This document shows, piece by piece, positions 4,906-37,688 of a DNA stretch of 64,000 bases. Location of the stretch: contig AZHR01000004.1 in assembly GCA_000504625.1 (NCBI GenBank), positions 15,863 through 79,862 on the forward strand, in the 5' to 3' direction. The notes beneath the pieces are model-generated. The model was given only the letters and a program-made list of their open reading frames with translations. It did no database searches and was not told the DNA's origin. A program made the translations under genes and the position numbers. Position 1 is the first letter of the stretch. Each line of letters opens with the position of its first letter. The stretch comes from an alpha proteobacterium SCGC AAA240-E13. Lineage in GTDB: Bacteria; Pseudomonadota; Alphaproteobacteria; Pelagibacterales; Pelagibacteraceae.

Positions 4906-6237
4906 TTATTTTATTGATTTCTTGATTAATTTTATACATTTCAATATTAATTTTTTATTATGTGACTCTCCCATAATTCTTATTTTTGGTTCTGTTCCTG
5001 ATTTTCTTATCAATAACCTTCCTTGATTGCTCATAAGTTTTTTTGCTTTTTTAATTACATTCTTACATTTGGGCCAATTAATTATGTTTTTATCTTTTAC
5101 AATTACATTTTCTAAAATTTGTGGCAAAGGTACAAAAACATCGAACAATTCACTAGCCTTTTTTCCTTTTCTTAATGAAAATAACACTTCTAATGCAACC
5201 ATTAGACCATCACCAGTCGTTGCGAATTTTCCAAGAATTATATGGCCAGACTGTTCACCGCCTAAATTAAAATTTGATTTTTTCATCTTTTCTTTTACGT
5301 ACCTGTCTCCTACCTTGGATCTAAAAAATCTAATTTTTTCATTTCTTAAAAAATTTTCTAATCCATAATTCGACATTAAAGTTCCAATTACACCACCTTT
5401 TAAAATTTTTTTTGATTTCCATCTGCGGGCCAACATTGCAATAATTTGATCACCATTTATAATTTTGCTGTTTTCATCGCACATAATGATTCTATCAGCA
5501 TCTCCATCAAATGAAATGCCAACATCAGCTCTGTATTTTTTCACAGCTGATTGAATTTTATATGGATAGGTAGATCCACATTTATCATTAATATTAAAAC
5601 CATTTGGTTTTACACCAATGACCACAACTTTTGCCCCAAGACTTTTAAGCAATTCAGGAGCAGCCTTATACCCAGCTCCATTAGCACAGTCTAAAACTAT
5701 CTTGATTCCCTTTAATTTAAAACTATTTGGAAAATTTTTCTTTAATATTTTAATATATTTATTATTTGCATCTTCTAATCTTTTAACCCTACCTAGTGAT
5801 TTAGGATTTGTTAGTTGTTTTGTGTTTTTAGCATCTATTAATTTTTCAATTTTATTTTCTATTTGATTTGATAATTTCATACCATCGGGTCCAAATAATT
5901 TAAGACCATTATCGTAATAGGGGTTATGGGATGCAGTAATCATAATACCTATATTTGCTTTCATTGATTTTGTTAACATTGCAAGTCCATTAGTTGGTAA
6001 AGGCCCCAGTGTAAAAACATGCATACCACCCGAAGTTAAGCCTGATACCAAAGCTGGTTCCAAAGTATATCCAGATAATCTTGTATCTTTAGCTATTATT
6101 GCAATTTGTTTGTTTTTTTTTTGGTTTTTAAAATAAGTGGCTGATGCTAAACCAAACTTAAAGAATTTTTCCCCAGTAATATTTCCTTGGTTGATGGTAC
6201 CTCTGATACCATCTGTTCCAAAATATTTATTGCTCAT
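4906..6237 (-). CDS. glmM: phosphoglucosamine mutase
   Basis: Phosphoserine loop TASHNPYYDNG, Mg loop FDGDADR, and GEQSGH. Confidence 0.9.
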   Translation of the reverse strand: MSNKYFGTDGIRGTINQGNITGEKFFKFGLASATYFKNQKKNKQIAIIAKDTRLSGYTLEPALVSGLTSGGMHVFTLGPLPTNGLAMLTKSMKANIGIMITASHNPYYDNGLKLFGPDGMKLSNQIENKIEKLIDAKNTKQLTNPKSLGRVKRLEDANNKYIKILKKNFPNSFKLKGIKIVLDCANGAGYKAAPELLKSLGAKVVVIGVKPNGFNINDKCGSTYPYKIQSAVKKYRADVGISFDGDADRIIMCDENSKIINGDQIIAMLARRWKSKKILKGGVIGTLMSNYGLENFLRNEKIRFFRSKVGDRYVKEKMKKSNFNLGGEQSGHIILGKFATTGDGLMVALEVLFSLRKGKKASELFDVFVPLPQILENVIVKDKNIINWPKCKNVIKKAKKLMSNQGRLLIRKSGTEPKIRIMGESHNKKLILKCIKLIKKSIK

Positions 6238-9326: not shown

Positions 9327-10370
9327 TTAAAACTCTTTTCTAATTATTAAAAAATTATTACTTTTTTCAATAATACACCGCCCCAGTGTTGATTTCTTAA
9401 ATTTTTTTGACTGTACTCTGATTATTAGATTATTGATATATTTGCCTCTTGGAGGATAGTAACTGTTAGAAACTTTAGAAATAATATCGCCAATTGTTCG
9501 GAAAATAACTTCTTCGGATTCTAAATTAAATAAATCATATCTAACTAAACATGAGTTAGATCGCAAATATCTTACATGCTTTTTTGTAGATTTTGTTTTA
9601 TAAAAATCTATAGATTCATTTGCTGATTGTAAGTTATTTAAAGTTAGTTTTACCTTATTGATATCTAAGCCATCTAATTTAAATTGATCTAAATAATTTC
9701 TAATTTTTGTACGTAAAAATTTTTCTTTAAAATTTGATGGATCAATAAGATAGAAATTAAAGACTCGTTTTGAAATATAAATTAATTCTCTTTTCTTTAT
9801 ATCTATTAAAGGTCTAATCACATTTAAAGTTTTGTTTTCTGATTGTCTTTTAATATTCAATGAAGATAGACCCTTCAAACCACTGCCTCTAAACAACCTT
9901 ATAAAAAAATTTTCTAATAAATCGCCCTCGTGATGAGCTAAAACTAAGTTTTTAATATTCAATTTTTTACACACCTTATTAAAAATAAAATATCTAATAT
10001 TACGAGCATTAAATTGGATATTTGAATTTGGAATATTACCTTTCCAAGTAAATATTTTTGCTTTGATCTTATGTATTTTTAATAATTGCTTAATTTTTGT
10101 TGCCTCGATTTTAGACTCTTTTCTTAAATTATGATCAACTATTAAAGCAATAAATTTGCAATTAAATTCACTTGAAAACACTTTACATAAAAATGCCAAA
10201 GCTAAACTATCTGGACCTCCAGATACGCCAATACAAAATTCTTTATTTCTAATATGAGAATATAATTTTTTTTTAAAAGTTAAATATATTTTGTTAATTT
10301 TTGGATCTTTAAGATATTTATTATGAAGATTAACTTTTTTTCGTTGGACAGTCGAATTTTTTTTCTTCAT
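9327..10370 (-). CDS. tilS: tRNA(Ile)-lysidine synthase
   Basis: PP-loop motif SGGPDS in a GVSGGPDSLAL context. Syntenic with ftsH. The 5' end overlaps cpoB by 41 nt, so the true start may be further downstream. Confidence 0.85.
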   Translation of the reverse strand: MKKKNSTVQRKKVNLHNKYLKDPKINKIYLTFKKKLYSHIRNKEFCIGVSGGPDSLALAFLCKVFSSEFNCKFIALIVDHNLRKESKIEATKIKQLLKIHKIKAKIFTWKGNIPNSNIQFNARNIRYFIFNKVCKKLNIKNLVLAHHEGDLLENFFIRLFRGSGLKGLSSLNIKRQSENKTLNVIRPLIDIKKRELIYISKRVFNFYLIDPSNFKEKFLRTKIRNYLDQFKLDGLDINKVKLTLNNLQSANESIDFYKTKSTKKHVRYLRSNSCLVRYDLFNLESEEVIFRTIGDIISKVSNSYYPPRGKYINNLIIRVQSKKFKKSTLGRCIIEKSNNFLIIRKEF

Positions 10371-11298
10371 ATTTTGCTTTTTGAAGAACAGATTGACTAG
10401 CTTCTGGGTACTGTTTACTAACTCCAGTGATCATTGAACAGCCCTGATCTTTTTCTCCAATTTGGACCAAAGATACACCAAGCTTTAATAAATTGACAGG
10501 ACCTTTGGTACTTTTTGGATATTTTTGATATCCTTCTAAATATGCTTCTGCCGCATCCTGGTAGAGTTGCCTAATTCTAAATGTTTCTGCATACCAGTAT
10601 TGTGCATTACCGGCAAGTTCATCATTCTCATTTGTCATAACAAATTCTCTTAATGCTATTTCAGCAGTTTCGTAGTCACCAACTTTAACAAAGCTAAGTG
10701 CAAAATCATATTGTTCTTTTGGTGTTCCTTCAGGTAAGATTTTTTCCTCGCTCATATACTTTTCAGTAACAACTGTATCAGTTGTTTCTATAGATTGAGT
10801 CTTCTGAACTATTTTAGTATTTTCTAAATCTTCATCACTAATTCTACCAAGATTTTGGGCTTCGGACGAACCAGGTAATTTTTTTTCTAATTGACTACTT
10901 AAATCATTAACTTGGGATTGACCTGAAAACTTAATATTTTCTAAATCTTGAAATCGTAATTGATTATCAGCTTGATTTTTTGAAATTCTACTTGAAAGTT
11001 TGTCAATTTTAAAATTTGTTTCCTCAAATTTATTTGTAAGTTCTTGAAACTGTTGTTCAATATCAGAAAGCTTCAGTAAATGCCGTGTGAGTGTATCTTC
11101 AGAAAAATTTGCATCACCAGTTTTTATAGTAGATAAAGAATCTCCTGAATAAACTGCTTTTTCTAAAGTTTTTAAATCTTTTTGAATGACTTGTAAAATA
11201 TTGTAAATCTCATTTTCCTCACCAAATGATTTAGTTTGAATATTTAAAATAAAGATAATTATAATTAAATTTTTAGAGTATTTTATTAGTCTATTCAT
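10330..11298 (-). CDS. cpoB: Tol-Pal system protein CpoB/YbgF
   Basis: Signal peptide, a central coiled coil and C-terminal TPR-like repeats (AQYWYAETF..., LLKLGVSLVQIG). It sits directly downstream of pal. Confidence 0.75.
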   Translation of the reverse strand: MNRLIKYSKNLIIIIFILNIQTKSFGEENEIYNILQVIQKDLKTLEKAVYSGDSLSTIKTGDANFSEDTLTRHLLKLSDIEQQFQELTNKFEETNFKIDKLSSRISKNQADNQLRFQDLENIKFSGQSQVNDLSSQLEKKLPGSSEAQNLGRISDEDLENTKIVQKTQSIETTDTVVTEKYMSEEKILPEGTPKEQYDFALSFVKVGDYETAEIALREFVMTNENDELAGNAQYWYAETFRIRQLYQDAAEAYLEGYQKYPKSTKGPVNLLKLGVSLVQIGEKDQGCSMITGVSKQYPEASQSVLQKAKYEEKKFDCPTKKS

Positions 11299-11325
11299 TT
11301 TTTAATTACTAATTAAAATAATGGC

Positions 11326-11362
11326 AAAAAAAAGACCCCGGATCATCATTCCAGGGTCTTTA
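11326..11362 (-). terminator. intrinsic terminator downstream of pal
   Basis: The minus-strand RNA forms hairpin AGACCCUGG-loop-CCGGGGUCU followed by U8. The forward sequence is A8-GACCCCGG...CCAGGGTC. It is one of the few GC-rich hairpins in the window. Confidence 0.65.
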
Positions 11363-11383
11363 AAAAATCTATTGAAATTTTTT

Positions 11384-11872
11384 TTAATTAGATTTAACCG
11401 TTACTGATCTTCTATTTTGAGACCAAGCTAGAGGAGTGGAGCCAGAATTTACTGGTCTTTCTTTCCCATAACTTATCACTGAAATTCTATTTCCTGATAT
11501 TCCATAAGTCATAAGATAATCTTTTGCAGCATTAGCTCTTCTCTCTCCCAAAGCTAAGTTGTACTCCCTAGTGCCTCTTTCATCAGCATGACCTTCTGCA
11601 GTCACATTAATACTTTTATTCTTTCTTAACCACGCAGCTTGTTTCCTTAATGTATCTCTCGCTTTTGTAGTCAAAATCGATTTATTCGTTGCAAAGAAAA
11701 CTCTATCCGGAACACCAGTAGCTAAATATTTTACAGTTTCTTCACCTGTAAAAACGTCACCAGATATTTGTGTTTCTATTTTTTTTGTTGTTGTTTTTGT
11801 AGCGCAAGCTGACATTAATAGCGTCGCTATTACTACTAAAAATAAATTTCTCAATAAATTTTTTAAAACCAT
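11384..11872 (-). CDS. pal: peptidoglycan-associated lipoprotein Pal
   Basis: Lipobox LMSAC and a C-terminal OmpA-like domain (NLALGERRANAAKDYL). Tol-Pal synteny. Confidence 0.9.
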   Translation of the reverse strand: MVLKNLLRNLFLVVIATLLMSACATKTTTKKIETQISGDVFTGEETVKYLATGVPDRVFFATNKSILTTKARDTLRKQAAWLRKNKSINVTAEGHADERGTREYNLALGERRANAAKDYLMTYGISGNRISVISYGKERPVNSGSTPLAWSQNRRSVTVKSN

Positions 11873-11950
11873 ATGTGGACTCCCTTAAATTATTTCAAAC
11901 ATTAATATTTCTAGATACACGATGCAAGCGAAATTTCAATAAAATAATGG

Positions 11951-13285
11951 CTACTTTGTTAACAAAGATGACCAGGATGGGTCTGAAGCATCGGTCAGGG
12001 TTTCAACCAACCTCTCATTATAACCTGTTAGGTCAATTGACCATAATTTAGCTGAAAACCCTTCACCCTGAGTTCCTGATTTGGTTTCCCTGTAAAAAAT
12101 TAAAACTCTTCCATTAGGAGACCAGGAAGGAGCTTCCTGATAGAAATTTTCAGTGAGCAATCTTTCTCCAGTTCCATCTATTCTCATAACTCCAATATAA
12201 AATTTACCATTGTGCATTTTTGTAAATGCTATTAAATCTCCTCTTGGAGACCAAACTGGTGTACCATATATTCCTCTTCCAAATGTAATTCTTTTAACAC
12301 TAGAACCATCTTTTCTCATTGTGTATATTTGTTGAAGTCCACTCCTGTCAGAGTTAAAACAAATATATTTTCCATCGGGAGAATAAGAAGGAGAAGTATC
12401 TATTGCAGGATGTTCAGTAATTTTTTCAACTTCTCTTGTTTCTAAGTTCATAGTAAATATATCAGAATTACCATCTTTAGCAAAACTCATAATTATTTTT
12501 TTTCCATCGGGGGAAAATCTTGGCGCAAATGTCATACCTGGAAAATCACCAACTACTTCTTGAACACCCGTTTCAATATCTAATAAATAAACTCTTGGTA
12601 AATTTCTAAAAAAAGACATATAGGTCACCAATTGATTTGTTGGGTTAAATCTTGGAGTTAAGACAAGTTCATTTCCCAAAGTTAAATATTTGGTATTAGC
12701 TCCATCTTGATCCATGATTGCTAATTTTTTTATTCTTTGATTTTTTGGGCCTTTCTCAGATACATAAATTATTCTTGTATCAAAATATCCTTTTTCTCCA
12801 GTAAGTCTTTCGTAAACCTTATCTGTAATTATATGTGCTACTCTCCGCCAGTTATTTGGTACTGTAGTGAATGCTAAAGCAATTATTTCTTTAGCTGCTA
12901 ATATATCCCATAATCTAAATTCCACTCTTAATTTATCTTTTGTAATATTAATCTTTCCTGTAATCAAAGCTTGAGCTTTAATAAGCTGCCAATCTTCAAA
13001 ACGTGGCTTAACGTGAACTATAGCTGGTTTTTGAACGAAAGAATCTTTTTCTAATGGATAAAATAAACCTGATCTTAAAAGATTGTTTTCAACGACTTTA
13101 GATATTTCAGAACCAACCTCTATTTCATTTAATATTTCTGACGATTGTGACTCGATATAAAGGGGTGAAACTGCTATTGGCAATGGATCTAAATTTCCTC
13201 TGGTTATATCAATTTCGATTAAAGCAAAAGAATTTTGATTAAAAAAAATAGAAATTAATAAAATTAAAAATAATTTATTTTTCAT
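11951..13285 (-). CDS. tolB: Tol-Pal system beta-propeller protein TolB
   Basis: Signal peptide and repeated propeller motifs [24 protein letters not shown] and WSPNGRVL. Confidence 0.93.
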
Positions 13286-14094
13286 CCTTTTAGCATCTCG
13301 TTAGCGTCAAAATTGAGTTGTAATTCTTTCCATCTTTCGTAACCTGTTGTGGGAACTCTAAGTGGCTGGCATAATCTGACAGCTCTTAAGGCACTTTCAG
13401 CTAACACTTTGTAAAAACCCTGCCCAGGTATATTCATTCTAACATGATCTAAAATTTCTGATTTAATAACTGTACCATCTTTTTTTAATTTTAGTTTAAT
13501 TCTTACCAATAAATTTTCATTGTATGGTAATCCTAAAGGAATGCTCCAACAACCAAATATCTGGGCTTTTAATGCATCCTCTTCACTGAGAGATAAATTA
13601 GATGTTATAGAGTTTTCTTCTTGGCTTTGAGTAATTTTATTGCTTTTACGTGTAGTTTCTGCTTTTTCAACTTTAGATTTGTCAATCAGTGCTGCTATTT
13701 GATCGGGATCAAAAAGTTCCTTCTTTTCAAATTCTGAAACCTGTTTTATTTCAGTATCAATTTTTTCTGGGTTTTGTTTTTTAGTTTTAATTTTCTTTTG
13801 TTTTTTAACATCTTCGGGAAGCGGAACTGCTTCAGGCTTTTCCTTTTTAACCATTTTTGGAGGAGCTTGTTCTGAAACTATTCTGTCTTTTTGCTTTTTT
13901 TTTTTAATTTTATCCAAAATTTTTTTTGCTTTAGGAGCATAAGGTATATTCGTTATATCTGAAATTTGTATTAGTTCTACTGATATAATTGGAGGCAAAT
14001 CTACAGGTTTCCTTAACATATGTGGCAAGCTAATAGCTGTCAAAATAATGATTATAGAGTGAAATAACAGTGATAAAAAAATACTTTTGGTCAT
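13282..14094 (-). CDS. tolA: TolA-like cell envelope integrity protein
   Basis: N-terminal TM anchor, a Lys/Glu/Pro-rich linker and a C-terminal globular domain. It lies between tolR and tolB. Confidence 0.65.
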
Positions 14095-14109
14095 TCATCA
14101 ATAAATAAT

Positions 14110-14526
14110 TTACCTTTGTTTATAAGGTTCAGATATTAAAGCTACTTTAGTAAAACCTGAGCCAGATAGCATACCCATAATCTCCAAAACTCTTCCATAA
14201 TTTATTGTTTTATCTCCTCTAACATAAATTCTGGTATCAGTTCTATTTTTTGCAATAGCTAAAATTTTAGCTACTACTTTATCGTACTCAACTTGATGTT
14301 CTTGAATAAAAATTTCACCCTTCGAGTTAATTGACAATGTTAAAGGCTCCTGATCTTCAGGTAAGGAATCTGCTGAACTTTCGGGTAAATCTACTGGGAC
14401 ACCAACTGTTAGTAATGGTGCCGTCACCATAAATATAATTAATAATACCAACATCACATCAACAAAGGGCGTAACGTTTATTTCACTCATAGGTGCTGTG
14501 TGTGAACGATTATATTTAAATGCCAT
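14110..14526 (-). CDS. tolR: TolR (ExbD/TolR family)
   Basis: Motif INVTPFVDVMLVLLIIFM in a single TM segment, length 138 aa, Tol-Pal synteny. Confidence 0.85.
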   Translation of the reverse strand: MAFKYNRSHTAPMSEINVTPFVDVMLVLLIIFMVTAPLLTVGVPVDLPESSADSLPEDQEPLTLSINSKGEIFIQEHQVEYDKVVAKILAIAKNRTDTRIYVRGDKTINYGRVLEIMGMLSGSGFTKVALISEPYKQR

Positions 14527-14532
14527 ATCTTA

Positions 14533-15213
14533 TTAGATAATTGATAAAAATCTTTTTGTAAAATTTTCTATTCTTCGTCCGTATATTCTAGACTCATTAT
14601 TAAATTTATTATACGCCATCACAGCAGGTATTGCTGCAAGCAAACCCAATGCTGTTGCAAATAGTGCTTCGGCGATTCCCGGTGCAACTATAGCTAAACT
14701 TGTATTTCTAGATATCGCTATTGATTGAAAAGAGTTCATGATGCCCCAAACTGTTCCGAATAATCCAATAAATGGCGCTGTAGCACCTACTGTTGCTAAA
14801 AAAGAAAAATTTTTTTCAATAGATTGAATTTCTTGATCTGCTGAAATTTCTAAAACTCTCGTAACTCTTGCAGTTTGGATATCACTATTTTTAGATTTTG
14901 ATTTGATTAATTCAACCATAGCAGACCGAAATATATTTGCTATAGGATCTTTAGTTTTACTTGGAAGACTTTTATAAAAACTTTCTGCAGATTTTGAACT
15001 CCAAAATTTATCTTCAAAAATTGTAGAAGTTTTATGAATGCTTTTAAAAAGCCTATATTTATCAAATATTAATGCCCAAGAATAAATTGAAGCCAAAATT
15101 AAAATAATAATTACACTTTTTACGACAATGTCTGCCCTTAAAAAAAGATTTATTAATGAAAAATCTGTAGCGCTGGCTAGTCCAACCGCTTGTGTTGCTA
15201 TTTCTGCTTCCAT
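14533..15213 (-). CDS. tolQ: TolQ (MotA/TolQ/ExbB proton channel)
   Basis: Three TM segments and the motif GLFGTVWGIMNSF. Tol-Pal synteny. Confidence 0.9.
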   Translation of the reverse strand: MEAEIATQAVGLASATDFSLINLFLRADIVVKSVIIILILASIYSWALIFDKYRLFKSIHKTSTIFEDKFWSSKSAESFYKSLPSKTKDPIANIFRSAMVELIKSKSKNSDIQTARVTRVLEISADQEIQSIEKNFSFLATVGATAPFIGLFGTVWGIMNSFQSIAISRNTSLAIVAPGIAEALFATALGLLAAIPAVMAYNKFNNESRIYGRRIENFTKRFLSII

Positions 15214-27439: not shown

Positions 27440-27516
<77 letters not shown>

Positions 27517-31513: not shown

Positions 31514-32227
31514 TTAACGTTGTTCAATTAGTTTAGATTCTTTCCAGATACCTTTTAAAATTATTCCATCATGAAATGTGTAAGTTCCTAATCCGTTGAA
31601 TTTAGCATCTTTCCATTCTCCAACGTATTTTGCACCGTTTGCCCATATGTAAATTCCTTGTCCGTGCTTTATGTTATCTTTAATTTCTCCAATGTATTTA
31701 TTTCCATTAGCATATATGTTGGTTCCCTTTCCATTTCGTTTATTATCTTTATATTTTCCAATATATTTATTTCCAATAGAGTCTATCAAAATCCCTTTTC
31801 CATGATAGCTACCATCTTTAAATTGACCTATATATTTATTTCCATTTAGATATGACATGGTTCCTCGTCCATTCGGAAGACCGTATTTGAATTCACCAAT
31901 ATATTTTATTCCGTTCGAAAAATTCATGGTTCCATGTCCGTTTGGTTTATTATATTTTAATTCTCCAATATATTTTATTCCATCGGGATAAGTTAAAATT
32001 CCATGCCCATGAAATTTCCCATTCCTATATTCCCCTTCATATAAAACTTTTTTGTATTTGTATTGTTCCTGATATAAGAGATCATATGCAATGTTTTTTT
32101 TTTCAGTTCCAAAACAATTCGTCCATTTGAAAGAATCGGTCCCCTTACAGTTGGGCAACAAACTGTCTGCTTGGCTCATATTGTAAAAAGCCAAAACCAG
32201 AAATACACATAGAGATAGTTTTTTCAT
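31514..32227 (-). CDS. secreted MORN-repeat protein (about 8 repeats)
   Basis: Signal peptide, then SLLPNCKGTD...WTNCFGT, then tandem YxGExxxGxxxGxG units (KYIGEFKYGLPNGRGT and others). Confidence 0.85.
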   Translation of the reverse strand: MKKLSLCVFLVLAFYNMSQADSLLPNCKGTDSFKWTNCFGTEKKNIAYDLLYQEQYKYKKVLYEGEYRNGKFHGHGILTYPDGIKYIGELKYNKPNGHGTMNFSNGIKYIGEFKYGLPNGRGTMSYLNGNKYIGQFKDGSYHGKGILIDSIGNKYIGKYKDNKRNGKGTNIYANGNKYIGEIKDNIKHGQGIYIWANGAKYVGEWKDAKFNGLGTYTFHDGIILKGIWKESKLIEQR

Positions 32228-32323: not shown

Positions 32324-33853
32324 TCAATTTGTAACTTTGCGCCTTAATTTTTTGACAAGTAGTTGTGATAATTTAAGAAAAAATCCGTTCTCTTTATCTT
32401 TTGTAACAAACATTGCCTTATAGTTTAATACGCCTTCATAAAACAATCTCCTGATAGTTGATTTTGAAGACCATTTCCGCCATTCCCATGCTTGAGAAAT
32501 CATATAAACAAAAGAAAAAAATGAATTATGTGGTAATTCACATAATCTTCTAACTAGTGGTTCCAAAATTGGAAATCTTAAGACTACAATCGCCCATTTT
32601 TGTAAATTACTTATTTTAACAATGTCTTTATTACGTTCTGGGCGCAAAGCTAATAAACTTAAATGGTAGTTATAAGGTGGCTTTTGTGACATTTCAAGAT
32701 CTTTTTTATCTATAAGACCTTTCTCAAGAGTAAAATCAGTTAAACCTAGGCCTGGAAAAAAATAGACAATATACATTCCCACAGCATTTGGTTTTATTTT
32801 TTGATTAATTTTTATAGTTTTCCATGCCTGCTCATAGGTTTCTGTAGGTATTCCAAACATATTAAATGTCTGAAATGGAATTTTATATTTTTTCAATAAA
32901 TATGCGCAATCATATATTTTTTGATCAGGCAACCTTCCTTTTTTTAAAACATTGCAACGAATATTCTCATCTCCAGATTCTACTCCAAAACGCACATTAT
33001 CAATATTTGCAGACTTCATTACTTTAACTTGATCTTCATCAACCAATTCAGCTCTAAGATTACAAGTCCATGGTAAATTAATTCTTTCTTTGTATTTTTG
33101 ACAAAACTCAACAAACCACTTTTTGTGAGAATTAAAAGTTGAGTCTGTAAACATTAATAATTTACCTTTAAGAAAACCTTTCTTTTTCACATTCTCTATT
33201 TCATCTATAAAAGAATCTACATTTTGATAAACTGTCGATTTTCCAGTACCAGAAAGGTTTACTATTGTAGGAACCTCACAAAATGAACATTTAAAAGGAC
33301 ATCCTCTTGATCCAACAAAAGTTACAAATGGGTAATTTTTAAAATATTCATATTTGGTATACAATTCACGATCTGGAAATGGAAGAGCAGTTAATTCACC
33401 TGATGTGAGTTTTGGTCTTATTCCATTTTTAATAATATCATTTCTTTTTTTTATCCATAAATTTTTTATGTTGAAATAATCAATCTTTTTATCAATAGCA
33501 TTGCATAATTCTACCATTGCATGTTCTCCTTCACCTCTACAAATCATGTCAATGCCATCATGTTTTAATGTAGAATCAGGAGCCATAGTTGGATGAATTC
33601 CTCCGACAATTTGTGGACAATGTATTCCATTTTTTTTTATGAATGTTGACATTGACTTTAGCCAATTCCACTGCATAGACATTATTGAATAAGCTATCAA
33701 ATCTGGTTTTATTTTCTTTATTTCTTCAACTGCTTTTTCTTCATCGTCAAATAATATGCTTGTATCATGGCCATGTTTCTTAAGCACAGCAGAAAGCTGC
33801 ATAACACCGTAGTATTCAATCCACAAATCCTGTAAAAATAAGACCTTTGCCAT
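32324..33853 (-). CDS. B12-binding-domain radical SAM protein (class B-like)
   Basis: N-terminal Rossmann-like cobalamin-binding domain pattern (PDLIAYSIMS, IVGGIHPT) and radical SAM cluster motif CPFKCSFC (CX3CX2C). Confidence 0.85.
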   Translation of the reverse strand: MAKVLFLQDLWIEYYGVMQLSAVLKKHGHDTSILFDDEEKAVEEIKKIKPDLIAYSIMSMQWNWLKSMSTFIKKNGIHCPQIVGGIHPTMAPDSTLKHDGIDMICRGEGEHAMVELCNAIDKKIDYFNIKNLWIKKRNDIIKNGIRPKLTSGELTALPFPDRELYTKYEYFKNYPFVTFVGSRGCPFKCSFCEVPTIVNLSGTGKSTVYQNVDSFIDEIENVKKKGFLKGKLLMFTDSTFNSHKKWFVEFCQKYKERINLPWTCNLRAELVDEDQVKVMKSANIDNVRFGVESGDENIRCNVLKKGRLPDQKIYDCAYLLKKYKIPFQTFNMFGIPTETYEQAWKTIKINQKIKPNAVGMYIVYFFPGLGLTDFTLEKGLIDKKDLEMSQKPPYNYHLSLLALRPERNKDIVKISNLQKWAIVVLRFPILEPLVRRLCELPHNSFFSFVYMISQAWEWRKWSSKSTIRRLFYEGVLNYKAMFVTKDKENGFFLKLSQLLVKKLRRKVTN

Positions 33854-34144
33854 ATCTATCTTCTATCTATTAAAGAAGCTTAACAATTTTAACAAAATCA
33901 ACTCGATATCTCTTACGTCTCTTATTAATTTTTGACAATACCATTGTAAAAGATCATTTTATCTTAAAAGTTATGTTCGTCAATTTAAATGATATGCATC
34001 TTTATAGTGTAAATCTGCGTCTCCCTCTCAATCTTCCATTAATGTTATAGATGTGGTAATTTTTATGTTATAAAATCTCATTTGGATCAACATCAAACTA
34101 CAATTTCAAAAGCCTTATTTAGTTCACAAAAATCAAAACATAAA

Positions 34145-34270
34145 ATGAACATCCGATTAGCTTGCGTTGAGAACGGATTAGACAATACAGGTTTCCATAA
34201 AATTGCGGCTTTCATAAAATCAATTCATCAAAATACAAAAGTTGCATATGTACCTACCGCAAATCATCGT
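34145..34270 (+). pseudogene. possible 5' remnant of a second B12-binding radical SAM gene
   Basis: MNIRLACVENGLDNTGFHKIAAFIKSIHQNTKVAYVPTANHR resembles the N-terminus of a B12-binding domain. It is locally GC-richer. The frame then runs into antisense MORN sequence. Confidence 0.3.
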
Positions 34271-34314
34271 AATATTAAAATATCAATAAATATTTTTGAA
34301 AATTTTATTATTAA

Positions 34315-34914
34315 TTATTTTGGTTTAACTAACTTATCGTTTTTCCAAATTCCTTCCTCAATTTTTCCGTTCTCTTGTGTAAAAGTTCCTTGTCCGCGTC
34401 GTTTTCCTTTTTTCCATTCTCCAACGTATTTATCTCCATTAATGTATGTGTATGTTCCTTGTCCATGACGCCCTTTTAAATTATCGGGAACATGATACTC
34501 ATCCCTTTTCCATTCCCCAACGTATTTATCTCCATTTGAATATATATATGTTCCCTGTCCATAATATTCAGCTTTTTTCCATTCTCCAGTATATTGGTCT
34601 CCATTAGCATAAGTATATGTTCCTTGCCCATGTCTCTTATGATTTTTATACTGTCCAACATATTCTCTCCCTTCATGTCTAAAGATTCCCTGTCCATGGA
34701 ATTCTCCTTTATAAAATTCGCCAATATATTTCTGACCTTTTGGGCCCAACGCAGTACCATGGCAGCTTGTCCATTTTCTCATCATACTAAAATGTTTTCT
34801 TGTGTACTTCGAAATATTTTCATCATTTCCTTTGCATTCTGGTAGGGAGCTTTGTGCCATCGCAATTTGGCATAACATTAAGATAAAATACCAATAAAAG
34901 AGCAATTTTTTCAT
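34315..34914 (-). CDS. secreted MORN-repeat protein (about 6 repeats), paralog of 31514-32227
   Basis: Signal peptide, SSLPECKGND...WTSCHGT, MORN units (KYVGEWKKGKRRGQGT), and the same C-terminal GIWKxxKL ending as the paralog. Confidence 0.85.
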   Translation of the reverse strand: MKKLLFYWYFILMLCQIAMAQSSLPECKGNDENISKYTRKHFSMMRKWTSCHGTALGPKGQKYIGEFYKGEFHGQGIFRHEGREYVGQYKNHKRHGQGTYTYANGDQYTGEWKKAEYYGQGTYIYSNGDKYVGEWKRDEYHVPDNLKGRHGQGTYTYINGDKYVGEWKKGKRRGQGTFTQENGKIEEGIWKNDKLVKPK

Positions 34915-34960: not shown

Positions 34961-35491
34961 TTAATTTGGTTTAGTTACTAATTTTTTTTTTTCATAAAAA
35001 TAATTAGCAATGAAAGCGCCATAAGAAAAAATTACCGTAGAGAAAACAGTATTTTTGAAAAAAGGTATTGCCATAAAATAACAATTTATTAATCCATTTA
35101 AATTTTTTTCATAAAGTGATCCAAAAGCCCAAACCCCAAAATTGGAAATTAAGTAAAATATTAATGAACCAACAAAACCAAAAACAAACAAATTTTTAAA
35201 ATTCATTTTATTTGCTATTTTAGAAAAAATAATAGTGATTAAAAATAGTGACAGGTAAACAAAAAACATGTGTTCATAAAATCCAACAAAAACATCTGCT
35301 AACAACATAGAGGCCATTAAAACAATGAAAGATAAGTTTATATTTTTAAACAAATAACTGCTCATTATTGCAACAGCTATTATAGGAGTAAAATTTGGTG
35401 GATGAGGTATTAGTCTGGAAAAAGCTAACAATAAAATTAAACTTATCGGGAAAATTTCTTTTTGTAATATTATTGTTAATTTTTTCATCAT
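34961..35491 (-). CDS. small polytopic membrane protein, putative inner-membrane transporter component (DUF6580-like)
   Basis: About 5-6 TM segments. The RLIPHPPNFTPIIAVAIM motif matches my memory of the DUF6580 putative transport family. A 2-nt gap separates it from the upstream receptor gene. Confidence 0.55.
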   Translation of the reverse strand: MMKKLTIILQKEIFPISLILLLAFSRLIPHPPNFTPIIAVAIMSSYLFKNINLSFIVLMASMLLADVFVGFYEHMFFVYLSLFLITIIFSKIANKMNFKNLFVFGFVGSLIFYLISNFGVWAFGSLYEKNLNGLINCYFMAIPFFKNTVFSTVIFSYGAFIANYFYEKKKLVTKPN

Positions 35492-35493
35492 AA

Positions 35494-37422
35494 TTAATAT
35501 ACCTTCCTTATACCAAAATTCAAATTCCTACCCGGAGTTGAATATTGATACCCTTCTTCGTAATTTACGTCAAATATATTCGACGCTGAAAAATATATTT
35601 TATATTTGTTAAATAAGTTATAATTACCTGAAAGATCTACTGTGACATAATCATCTAATATTACATCATTATATCCCCCATTACTTGTATTGGCGTTTCC
35701 GTAATCTCTTCTCTCTGCTGCATACTTAATTAAAAGTGATGTATTAATTTTATTATTAATTTTTTTATTTATGGATGCATTCATTGAGTGCCTAGGTACC
35801 CTCACTGGCATCTCATCAAGACATGTATGCCAATCAGCCTGATATTTGGCATAATCTGGATCATCGCAGTCTTCTCCATCATAAGCATCAGTAAAAGTAT
35901 ACCCTAAATCAAAACTTAAAGTTTTTTCAGGTTTCCATTTGGTTGTAAGTTCAAAACCTCTGCTTTTAATGTTTCCTTCTGAATTTTGTATAGTTTGAGA
36001 TGGCCCTTTTCCATTATCAGTATTTTCTATCCAGTTGGAAAGATTATCATCATAGATCACATGGAATAAAGTTAGATCTAAATTGAGATTATGTTTTTCA
36101 ATAAATTTTTCAATACCAAAATCAAAACTGGTACTCTTTTCAGGAACCAGGTCTTCTTTATTATCAACGTTATAATCATAAAAGTAATCATTCAAAGAAG
36201 GAAATCTTATTCCAGTACCCAAAGAAGATCTGAATTTAGTTCTTTTATCTGGTATGTAGGCAAAAGTAATTCTTCCTGTTTCATAAGCTCCTGCCGTTGT
36301 ATGATCATCTCTTCTTAACCCAATTGTTGAATATATTTTTTCTGTAGGTCTAAATTGTAAATCTATATATTGTGAGTAGACTGCTTCATCACTTTCAAGG
36401 TTACCGGTAACAGACCATGTTGTAAAATCTGCTCTGTCAAATTCGTTATCCAAACCGTAAACAATTTTTGTATCATAATTAAAATTATATTCACCAATAA
36501 GATTAATGGCATCTCTGTATCCCCAGTAAATATCATTTGTGCCTGAGTAGCCTATTACGGATCTTTTTATATACGTATTATTATATGATAATGTATTTTT
36601 AAGATTCCCATCATCACGAATTAATCTTAAACTGTAAGAACTTTCTTCATCATCAGTATTATTACCATCTGTTCTTCCAGAAGTAACTTCGTCATACTCC
36701 AAATATGAGTCTGCATATCTTAGGTAATTTTCTAATCTAAATTTATCATTAATATTGTAACCAAAATTTGCAACAACACTGTCATTGTAATATTTATCTT
36801 TTTCATCATTATCGTTCATGGCTGAAATTCCGTCGGTTAGGAATTTATTGAAACCAACAAAATAATCATAGTTGTTTTCTTTTCCATCGAAGGAAATATT
36901 AAAATTCTTTGTATCATTTGAGCCTGTGGATACTTCTATGTCATTATGATGACCTTCTTTACCTTTTTTTGTAAAAAGATTGATAGTTCCTCCTATGGCA
37001 CTACTACCATACAAAGAACTTTGTGTACCTTTCAAAATTTCAACACGATCTATTGAACCCTTCATTAAATTGCCAAAATAATAATCATTTGATGGGCTTG
37101 AGGGATCTGAGACTTTTACACCATCTATATACACTGTAGAATATCTTTTTGGTAGACCTCTTAGCTGTACCCCCGAAGTAGTACCATGACCTCCTGATTG
37201 AAAATAATTCATTCCATTTAAATTTTTACTTAAAACATCTCCAAGAAAAAACTCATTAGATTCTGAAATTGCTTTACTATCAACTATCACAACATCGCTT
37301 CCTACAATGCTTTTTGATTGATAAGTTTTTCCTGCCGAAATAACAATAATAGGAATATTCTCAGCAAACAATTTTTTAGATGAGAACGTAATAATTAATA
37401 AAAAAATAATAATTCTTAGCAT
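35494..37422 (-). CDS. TonB-dependent outer-membrane receptor, BtuB-like
   Basis: Signal peptide, a TonB-box-like IPIIVISA, plug motifs (RVEILKGTQSSLYGSSAIGGTINL), and a beta-barrel ending in NFGIRKVY with a terminal aromatic residue. Confidence 0.9.
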   Translation of the reverse strand: MLRIIIFLLIITFSSKKLFAENIPIIVISAGKTYQSKSIVGSDVVIVDSKAISESNEFFLGDVLSKNLNGMNYFQSGGHGTTSGVQLRGLPKRYSTVYIDGVKVSDPSSPSNDYYFGNLMKGSIDRVEILKGTQSSLYGSSAIGGTINLFTKKGKEGHHNDIEVSTGSNDTKNFNISFDGKENNYDYFVGFNKFLTDGISAMNDNDEKDKYYNDSVVANFGYNINDKFRLENYLRYADSYLEYDEVTSGRTDGNNTDDEESSYSLRLIRDDGNLKNTLSYNNTYIKRSVIGYSGTNDIYWGYRDAINLIGEYNFNYDTKIVYGLDNEFDRADFTTWSVTGNLESDEAVYSQYIDLQFRPTEKIYSTIGLRRDDHTTAGAYETGRITFAYIPDKRTKFRSSLGTGIRFPSLNDYFYDYNVDNKEDLVPEKSTSFDFGIEKFIEKHNLNLDLTLFHVIYDDNLSNWIENTDNGKGPSQTIQNSEGNIKSRGFELTTKWKPEKTLSFDLGYTFTDAYDGEDCDDPDYAKYQADWHTCLDEMPVRVPRHSMNASINKKINNKINTSLLIKYAAERRDYGNANTSNGGYNDVILDDYVTVDLSGNYNLFNKYKIYFSASNIFDVNYEEGYQYSTPGRNLNFGIRKVY

Positions 37423-37534
37423 GTTTGCACCTTTACTCCTTAATTTCGAGTCTATTAAAAACCCAAAAAATTAATGCCACTGCTAATTTTTCATTGTAGA
37501 ACTAGACTTTTCTCGGCCTTTATTCGACAGCGGA

Positions 37535-37629
37535 CTATACCGGGTAGTGTTCGGACTTGGATTAGCTCCTTACCTTTGCGAGCACAGTTAATGATTCACA
37601 CATTATTCCCCACCGTAGTAACGGTACAG
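37535..37629 (-). promoter_or_regulatory. cobalamin riboswitch aptamer, compact (class II / AdoCbl-variant-like)
   Basis: The minus-strand RNA has a GGGAAUAAUGUGUGAAUCAUUAACUGUGCUCGCAAAGGUAAGGA core and the B12-box-like CCAAGUCCGAACACUACCCGG. An 8-bp helix CUGUACCG/CGGUAUAG closes it. It lies 5' of the BtuB-like gene. Confidence 0.7.
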
Positions 37630-37688
37630 TGAACGCAATAAACTATTCGAAAAAAAAAGTCAAATTTTTTTTGTTAACAAAAAATTAA

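Follow-up and report, generated by a model that had tools for sequence, protein, structure and literature searches.

The leader described here lies on the minus strand of a 64,000-nucleotide stretch of contig AZHR01000004.1 from the alpha proteobacterium SCGC AAA240-E13; the whole stretch is referred to as the window, and all positions are counted along it. The leader directly precedes the gene of a TonB-dependent receptor related to BtuB, which is followed in turn by the gene of a small DUF6580 membrane protein. The best explanation of this arrangement, and in our view a probable one, is that a class-II cobalamin riboswitch, placed first in its own transcript, would control a two-gene operon for corrinoid uptake. 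The parts of this reading differ in strength. On comparative grounds, the RNA is almost certainly a class-II cobalamin riboswitch and the receptor operon its target; control of translation through two competing folds of the leader is quite likely; and, as to the direction of control, we lean towards repression by B12.

When the whole window was scanned with Rfam 15 (cmscan), only two matches passed the gathering thresholds. One is a tRNA, and the other, the sole riboswitch, is a match to RF01689 (AdoCbl-II, formerly AdoCbl-variant) at 37627..37537 on the minus strand, with 51.6 bits against a gathering threshold of 36.5 and E = 1.2e-09. The alignment spans the full model (positions 1-81), and RF01689 was also the top-scoring family of the cobalamin clan at this locus in a more permissive scan of the leader alone. 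The initial annotation, made from the letters of the DNA, had proposed just such a compact class-II/AdoCbl-variant riboswitch, and the RNA that it quoted is exactly the minus strand from 37640 to 37423. This interval covers the entire leader, which runs from the -10 region up to the nucleotide preceding the ATG; the aptamer itself takes up only 37537-37627. Its parts are as follows:

37537..37627, minus strand: class-II cobalamin aptamer, from the RF01689 match and covariation among homologues
37627-37622 with 37542-37537, minus strand: helix P1, 6 conserved base pairs (bp)
37621-37615, minus strand: J1/3 bulge, 7 nucleotides (nt)
37614-37610 with 37547-37543, minus strand: helix P3
37605-37589, minus strand: P4 hairpin
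37577..37586, minus strand: P5 hairpin UGU-GCUC-GCA, with the kissing-loop nucleotides CUCG at 37582-37579, which pair with L13
37552..37575, minus strand: P6 with an inserted mini-hairpin, GGA-GCUAA-UCC at 37569-37559 (11 nt), from the cmscan alignment
37551-37548, minus strand: J6/3, core of the B12 box

Two details of the earlier description need correction. The outer helix had been drawn with 8 bp; the six pairs of P1 are conserved, but the extra CU/AG pairs are not conserved in relatives. Their AG is part of a conserved helix further downstream, and the conserved promoter sets the transcript start near P1. The element had also been called the most GC-rich non-tRNA segment of the window, which is not the case: the 91-nt aptamer has a GC fraction of 0.46 with a local maximum of 0.495, and it ties with or falls just below two coding segments (0.505 and 0.495), which leaves it among the three or four most GC-rich 91-nt stretches.

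With regard to class, the two features of the cobalamin I (Cbl-I) group, i.e., the P2 loop-stem-loop between P1 and P3 and the P7-P11 extension of P6, are absent from the window aptamer. According to the definitions of Cbl-I and Cbl-II and of the subclasses IIa and IIb in PMC7367189, Cbl-IIa RNAs, which are selective for hydroxo- or methylcobalamin, have a bulged J1/3 and a P6 with a simple loop, and Cbl-IIb RNAs, which are selective for adenosylcobalamin (AdoCbl), have a short paired or mismatched J1/3 and a P6 with a short hairpin (PMC7367189). The window aptamer mixes the two, since its bulged J1/3 is IIa-like and its P6 hairpin is IIb-like. The optional P6 mini-hairpin is also present in about one third of the orthologous leaders, and both forms of P6 precede orthologous receptors.

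The closest known relatives are the AdoCbl-variant/AdoCbl-II riboswitches (RF01689; Weinberg et al. 2010, PMC2864571), which include the env8 hydroxocobalamin riboswitch (PDB 4FRN, Cbl-IIa) and with which the window RNA shares the P3-P6 four-way-junction core. Like them, it has a bulged J1/3 in place of the P2 module, no P7-P11 extension and an L5-L13 kissing loop, the last of which is common to all cobalamin riboswitch classes (PMC7367189). In env8-type RNAs, L13 itself bears the ribosome-binding site, whereas in the window L13 precedes the start codon by approx. 90 nt and P13 is held inside a three-way junction. The 2010 seed alignment was built from Global Ocean Sampling scaffolds labelled only 'Marine' and is dominated by near-identical leaders (...CAGUAU AGUCCGCUGUUGAA UGAAGGC CAGGAAAAGUC U A G UUCUAC...); the GCUC/CGAG pair of the window occurs in one row, and the published consensus already draws the optional P6 hairpin, a two-part P13 and the L5-L13 pseudoknot (PMC2864571). 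The alignment stops short of the 3' strand of the outer helix Pa described below, and the three-way junction and the sequestor are therefore not in it. Both the RNA class and the leader subtype were thus already on record; the present analysis adds an attribution to SAR11, the DUF6580 partner, the radical SAM genes that recur nearby and the architecture of outer helix and sequestor.

The leader of Escherichia coli btuB (Cbl-I, RF00174) shares with the window an outer-membrane B12 receptor as its target, the L5-L13 kissing loop and the core motifs GGGAA, GGUAAGGA... and CCAAGYCCGAA. The core string that the initial annotation had given for comparison is exact: a riboswitch-annotated feature of more than 5,200 E. 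coli genomes contains it with 100% identity. The E. coli leader differs in having the P2 module and a long P7-P11 extension that recognises the adenosyl group, both of which are missing from the window. It controls translation via alternative pairing that involves the expression platform.

For comparison, 80 metagenomic loci and several genomic ones that encode relatives of the receptor were fetched, and they were searched with a covariance model made from three confirmed aptamers. An aptamer lies immediately 5' of the orthologous receptor in 76 of the 89 sources. Eleven of the 13 misses have less than 140 nt of upstream DNA, and the other two (L065 and L069) are true exceptions. In L065, a receptor-DUF6580 pair adjoins a 23S rRNA gene and has an upstream region of 104 nt (5873-5976) without a riboswitch; its receptor is 52% identical to that of the window, and the operon family is thus not always riboswitch-controlled. 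In L069, a radical SAM gene (370-1743) ends approx. 25 nt ahead of the receptor start, and the gap contains no riboswitch.

The homologous leaders, in which the initial annotation had suggested that covariation be sought, conserve all of the helices and the kissing loop, and these covary. Among 70 distinct homologues, 98.5% of the cells in the aptamer helices are paired, a figure that is biased upward because the alignment was fitted to the model, and 16 of the 22 pairs are compensatory, with both sides changed; when the partner strand was slid as a control, 31-46% of the cells were paired. Compensatory pairs occur in all five helices (P1, P3, P4, P5 and P6).

Directly after P1, a strongly conserved segment of approx. 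62 nt is common to all leaders. In the window, its elements are:

37527..37535, minus strand: 5' strand of the outer helix Pa, G-U-CCGCUGU, pairing with 37483-37476
37499..37525, minus strand: two-part P13 hairpin, with L13 CGAGAAAA at 37515-37508 and the kissing nucleotides CGAG at 37515-37512
37484..37496, minus strand: P14, a small AU-rich hairpin (CAAU-GAAAA-AUUA), third arm of the three-way junction
37476..37483, minus strand: 3' strand of Pa, GCAGUGGC, followed by a near-invariant AU; also the putative strand opposing the Shine-Dalgarno (SD) sequence and the start codon

The first four nucleotides of L13 are the complement of L5 and of the base that opens the 3' strand of P5. They change together with their partners: the pair is CCUG:CAGG in most loci, CUCG:CGAG in the clade of the window, and UCUG:CAGA or CCCG:CGGG in single loci. 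In a MAFFT alignment that was not fitted to structure, 99.6% of the kissing-loop cells are paired, compared with 4-50% in slid registers, and three of the four pairs show changes on both sides. P13 is paired in 93.8% of cells, with one pair alternating between U.G, C-G and U-A, and Pa, by pair counts, in 89.9%; Pa and the extended P13 taken jointly reach 87.9%, compared with 24-43% when slid, and both are recovered independently by RNAalifold. Support for P14 is weak: 72.8% of its cells are paired, with some compensatory changes, and the hairpin is missing from the RNAalifold prediction. Together, Pa, P13 and the small AU-rich hairpin would make a tight three-way junction, the junction nucleotides of which are conserved. 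Covariation shows, at the level of predicted structure, both the 4-bp kissing loop between L5 and L13 and the Pa-closed junction that holds P13. A small open reading frame (ORF) after L13, AUG AAA AAU UAG, was considered as the regulated target and ruled out because its AUG is missing from approx. 40% of the leaders.

The leader appears to have a promoter of its own:

37658..37663, minus strand: -35 box TTGACT; a TTGACA-like hexamer stands at the same spacing to P1 in most of 58 leaders
37635..37640, minus strand: inferred -10-like hexamer TATTGC, 17 nt past the -35 box and 7 nt before P1

Close relatives have TATTTA or TATAAT-like hexamers at the position of the -10 element of the window. A generic promoter scan did not call the leader promoter because its -10 element is weak. 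From the conserved promoter, transcription would start within a few nucleotides of P1. An alternative in which P1 is extended into the 5' strand of Pa, so that ligand binding would compete with Pa, was ruled out because the promoter sets the transcript start at P1 and because the upstream sequences are non-complementary.

Between the junction and the start codon there are approx. 50 nt, which begin with an AU-rich linker of approx. 11 nt and continue with:

37444..37468, minus strand: variable hairpin UUUUGGGU-UUUUAAUAG-ACUCGAAA, conserved in position but not in sequence
37420..37441, minus strand: translation initiation region (TIR), with AAGGAG at 37441-37436, AGGUG at 37432-37428 and the ATG at 37422-37420

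A hairpin of 8-10 bp occupies this fixed position in 47 of 47 leaders (mean dG -8.4, z = -1.9), and it would form the apex of a long sequestor stem. An intrinsic terminator as the expression platform was ruled out because a terminator scan of the leader called none and because the positional hairpin has no U tract after it (mean of 1.7 U in the next 8 nt in the 47 leaders).

Complementarity to the SD/start region was assessed for five conserved segments and for the variable hairpin's 5' arm, and the 3' strand of Pa together with the linker gave the sole clear signal. A weaker one came from the hairpin arm (mean z -0.55), and the other candidates (the P1 5' strand with J1/3, P5/L5, the P1 3' strand with the Pa 5' strand, and the P13 3' strand) gave none (mean z -0.06 to +0.56). 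The minimum free energy fold of the single sequence pairs the 5' strand of P1 with the SD sequence (z = -0.36); given the lack of signal for these other segments, this fold is taken as chance. When the variable hairpin was left out, cognate flanks paired at -8.16 kcal/mol and non-cognate ones at -7.21 kcal/mol (permutation p < 1e-4); the pairing joins the GC-rich CGGCAU in the 3' strand of Pa to the stretch from -10 to -3 ahead of the AUG. In the relatives, the Pa 3' strand pairs with its own TIR at a mean of -6.1 kcal/mol, whereas the starts of 271 other genes of these contigs give -1.8 kcal/mol and GC-matched starts -3.6 kcal/mol. In the window, direct reading finds UUAGCA (37486-37481) complementary to UGCUAA (37421-37416).

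Variants of the Pa 3' strand tend to match the TIR, with CAGAGG found alongside UGCCUU or UGCUUUU, and covariation between position 58 of this strand and the TIR is no more than suggestive (8/10, 17/39 and 2/2 in the expected classes). A count of the UGYC motif was enriched (25% vs. 1.8%) and was replaced by the energy test because it captured one pairing register only. In two relatives with a short linker (L077 and L074), AGCAGGGC pairs with GCUUUGCU in a local 8-bp hairpin that ends at the AUG. Because the Pa 3' strand pairs either with the Pa 5' strand or with the TIR, Pa and the long sequestor stem are shown to be mutually exclusive as predicted folds. The computed unpaired fraction of the TIR falls from 0.67 in the Pa conformer to 0.40 in the sequestor conformer in the window, and from 0.56 to 0.36 on average in 51 leaders. 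Translational control had been called plausible in the initial annotation; with a conserved structure that competes for the SD/start region, control through the competing Pa and sequestor folds now appears quite likely.

The operon that would be controlled consists of two genes:

35494..37422, minus strand: TonB-dependent receptor, BtuB-like, 642 amino acids (aa), Plug domain PF07715 and barrel PF00593, both above their cutoffs
34961..35491, minus strand: DUF6580 membrane protein, 176 aa, PF20221 with E = 1.5e-39; its start overlaps the stop codon of the receptor gene

The product of the first gene is indeed a TonB-dependent receptor, as it had been annotated, and BtuB is its best family match; the best NCBIfam match is TIGR01779 TonB-B12 (187 bits, E = 5.7e-55). 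It has a hydrophobic N-terminus followed by the conserved IPIIVISAGK, and E. coli BtuB structures align over residues 26-516. On these matches, the receptor is classed as BtuB-like and not as a certified equivalog. DUF6580 follows the receptor in 62 of the 63 loci with enough downstream DNA (e.g., L009:9203-9688), and it carries the invariant motifs RLIPHPPNFTP and NFGVW. From synteny alone, it is proposed as a candidate inner-membrane corrinoid permease, which would assign a candidate function to a family that has none. In one clade, represented by L009 (8957-9121) with the same position in L010-L014, a 54-aa DUF1289 ORF lies between the receptor and DUF6580 genes; it does not occur in the window.

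This arrangement resembles BtuB-BtuM uptake (Rempel et al. 2018, PMC6072759), in which the TonB-dependent receptor is combined with a solitary inner-membrane transporter of ECF-S-like type. In both cases, a small multi-helix membrane protein is encoded beside btuB in a proteobacterium, and BtuCDF is not seen nearby. The logic of an outer-membrane receptor with a small solitary permease is the same. BtuM has an invariant cobalt-ligating cysteine, Cys80, in L3 (PMC6072759). DUF6580 gave a weak match to the riboflavin S component of energy-coupling factor (ECF) transporters (24.4 bits). However, sequence and profile searches against solved structures (PDB) gave no match, the fold search was empty, the AlphaFold model is of low confidence (pLDDT 65, pTM 0.45), and no cysteine stands near the position of Cys80 in the DUF6580 alignment. 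Homology of DUF6580 to BtuM or to ECF S components thus gained no support from these searches; the protein would be at most an analogue of BtuM, not a member of its family.

With regard to mechanism, the preferred reading is that L13 would dock onto L5 in the B12-bound RNA once P13 has been transcribed, and that docking would keep the 5' strand of Pa stretched and single-stranded as a J1/13 linker. The 3' strand of Pa, thus free, would pair with the initiation region, so that translation of both the receptor gene and the DUF6580 gene that overlaps it would be repressed. Without B12, Pa would form first and the initiation region would stay open. Repression is favoured because precedent and physiology both point to it. 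To our knowledge, every characterised cobalamin riboswitch that precedes btuB represses. Indeed, repression of btuB by B12 is established, and btuB regulation is described in these terms (PMC9296465). It is also reasonable to assume that an uptake system for a picomolar nutrient that stays silent until the nutrient is inside would defeat scavenging. Several observations nonetheless weigh against one or another part of this reading. In nearest-neighbour calculations, the sequestor conformer is favoured over the Pa conformer by approx. 3.3 kcal/mol in 90% of the 51 leaders, a difference whose sign is unreliable given a generic multiloop penalty of +6.6 kcal/mol. Taken at face value, it is easier to reconcile with an ON switch than with an OFF switch, since ligand would be needed to favour Pa. 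The tight junction, with its conserved nucleotides and third arm, has the look of a scaffold holding P13 ready to dock, which would place Pa in the bound state. The same riboswitch and folds would then follow the opposite logic: docked L13 would lock the junction, Pa would withhold its 3' strand and B12 would turn the operon on, whereas without B12 the more stable sequestor stem would form and the operon would be silent. The local 8-bp hairpin of L077 and L074, which should readily displace Pa, is consistent with such activation, and so is L069, where the receptor follows the gene of a B12-dependent enzyme, apparently in one operon, and where feed-forward induction would be sensible. However, energy models ignore tertiary structure and over-penalise multiloops, which brings the computed preference within error; in view of this and of the precedent and physiology cited above, activation by B12 appears rather unlikely.

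Repression through the sequestor thus remains preferred, and the further points against it concern the route, the RNA and the genes. The duplex between the Pa 3' strand and the TIR of the window itself is -4.9 kcal/mol, weaker than in most relatives, the dinucleotide-shuffle z for flank complementarity is only about -1, and the p-values given above are optimistic because the loci are phylogenetically related. Moreover, the variable hairpin keeps its position in every leader, yet the hairpin itself does not sequester the SD sequence. It could be argued from this that the riboswitch is real but works by a different route, for instance through Rho-dependent termination, through non-canonical termination at the variable hairpin or through decay mediated by an RNase, and that the complementarity of the Pa 3' strand to the initiation region is incidental. 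Such a route is improbable, as the hairpin has no U tract and no terminator was called in the leader, a C-poor leader is unfavourable as a Rho loading site, and the complementarity is specific against both the 271 real and the GC-matched gene starts and tracks the strand variants. The window aptamer is also the lowest-scoring of three relatives under the Rfam model (51.6 vs. 73.9 and 84.4 bits), and the basal pair of its P6 is an A-G mismatch, as might be expected of a decaying or chance look-alike without regulatory function in this genome. That reading has very little to recommend it, given an E value of 1e-09 in a 64-kb window, the window's own compensatory CUCG:CGAG pair, the intact Pa, P13, positional hairpin and promoter, and the presence of the identical leader in an independent assembly (L007). 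As for the genes, the receptor falls below the BtuB equivalog cutoff (TIGR01779/NF007926; 187 vs. 599.7 bits), the link between DUF6580 and corrinoids is one of synteny only, and no TonB, ExbB or ExbD was seen within the 64-kb window.

A probable user of imported corrinoid is encoded two genes beyond DUF6580, and related genes recur beside the receptor elsewhere:

32324..33853, minus strand: class-B (B12-binding) radical SAM enzyme, 509 aa, PF02310 (62.6 bits) and PF04055 (63.6 bits)
L072:8544-9932, L070:10928-12334, L043:8628-9857, L069:370-1743 and others: radical SAM neighbours of the receptor in other loci

In 24 loci, a radical SAM homologue is encoded at most a few kb from the receptor; these include 10 of the 25 loci that are 9 kb or longer and 8 of the 29 with 5-9 kb, and all 10 homologues tested contain both PF02310 and PF04055. 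In the window, a gap of 461 nt (33854-34314) separates the radical SAM gene from the MORN-repeat gene upstream of it; the only ORF that overlaps this gap, 128 aa on the opposite strand, is probably spurious, and neither an Rfam match nor a second cobalamin aptamer was found there. Given the gap, the radical SAM gene is probably outside the receptor transcript, and a separate promoter for it may lie there. On either side of the radical SAM gene, at 34315-34914 and 31514-32227 and both on the minus strand, are two genes of MORN-repeat proteins whose N-termini resemble signal sequences. Neither has a counterpart among the fetched loci, with the exception of the same-strain contig L007.

SAR11 is the most abundant bacterial group of the surface ocean, where B12 is a scarce currency. 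That the window comes from a SAR11 (Pelagibacteraceae) genome, much as had been suggested from its letters, is supported by its proteins: the best named matches of its adenylosuccinate synthase (PurA) are metagenome-assembled genomes (MAGs) of Pelagibacteraceae, at 78% identity, and orthologues of the receptor come from a Pelagibacteraceae single amplified genome and a Candidatus Pelagibacter MAG, a further one being filed by NCBI under Candidatus P. ubique. A corrinoid sensor had been considered unexpected in this group. Part of the literature agrees, in that SAR11 is reported neither to require nor to make B12 (PMC8552899) and HTCC1062 and HTCC1002 to lack TonB-dependent transporters (PMC3400609). 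On the other hand, SAR11 has also been called a B12 auxotroph in a study that discusses SAR11 btuB and states its regulation by B12 as unknown (PMC9296465), and the present leader type dominates the 2010 seed. No paper that ties this riboswitch to SAR11 was found in the literature.

Thus, the literature is split on whether SAR11 uses B12 at all (PMC8552899 vs. PMC9296465), and the locus makes this disagreement directly testable. Judged from the window, some members of SAR11 would sense and import B12, and together with approx. 70 distinct relatives the locus points to a widespread SAR11 subset that carries a dedicated pair of riboswitch-controlled receptor and candidate permease. It should be noted that the RNA class is well characterised and that the gain lies in ecological and mechanistic detail, not in a new principle.

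The setting of the locus may also be informative. Overall, the window has a GC content of 27%, and its positions 37689-64000 form a low-GC island of 26 kb with 21-25% GC, compared with approx. 30% in the remainder. The island encodes glycosyltransferases, sugar-nucleotide dehydratases and epimerases, methyltransferases and unannotated ORFs, and it resembles the hypervariable surface-glycan region of SAR11. The B12 uptake unit is placed exactly at the island border, and the loci of relatives have similar kinds of neighbours. This position, with radical SAM genes often near, suggests a strain-level demand for B12 in the flexible genome, in which imported corrinoid would serve class-B radical SAM enzymes in or beside the surface-glycan island. 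A bolder and doubtful version of this idea would combine an ON riboswitch with DUF6580 as an unrecognised corrinoid import system that feeds the class-B radical SAM enzymes of the island; if it is true, B12 use in SAR11 would be a strain-variable trait of the cell surface.

The remaining genes of the window include a set typical of a streamlined alphaproteobacterium, with a Tol-Pal cluster, glycolysis genes, FtsH and TilS. The Tol-Pal cluster (TolQ, TolR, a TolA-like protein, TolB, Pal and a CpoB-like TPR protein) lies at 10330-15213 on the minus strand, in a window that shows no TonB/ExbB/ExbD for energising the receptor. The tRNA gene, at 27440-27513 on the plus strand (65.5 bits), has the anticodon loop CUCAUAA and thus a CAU anticodon, and it is the most GC-rich stretch of the window.

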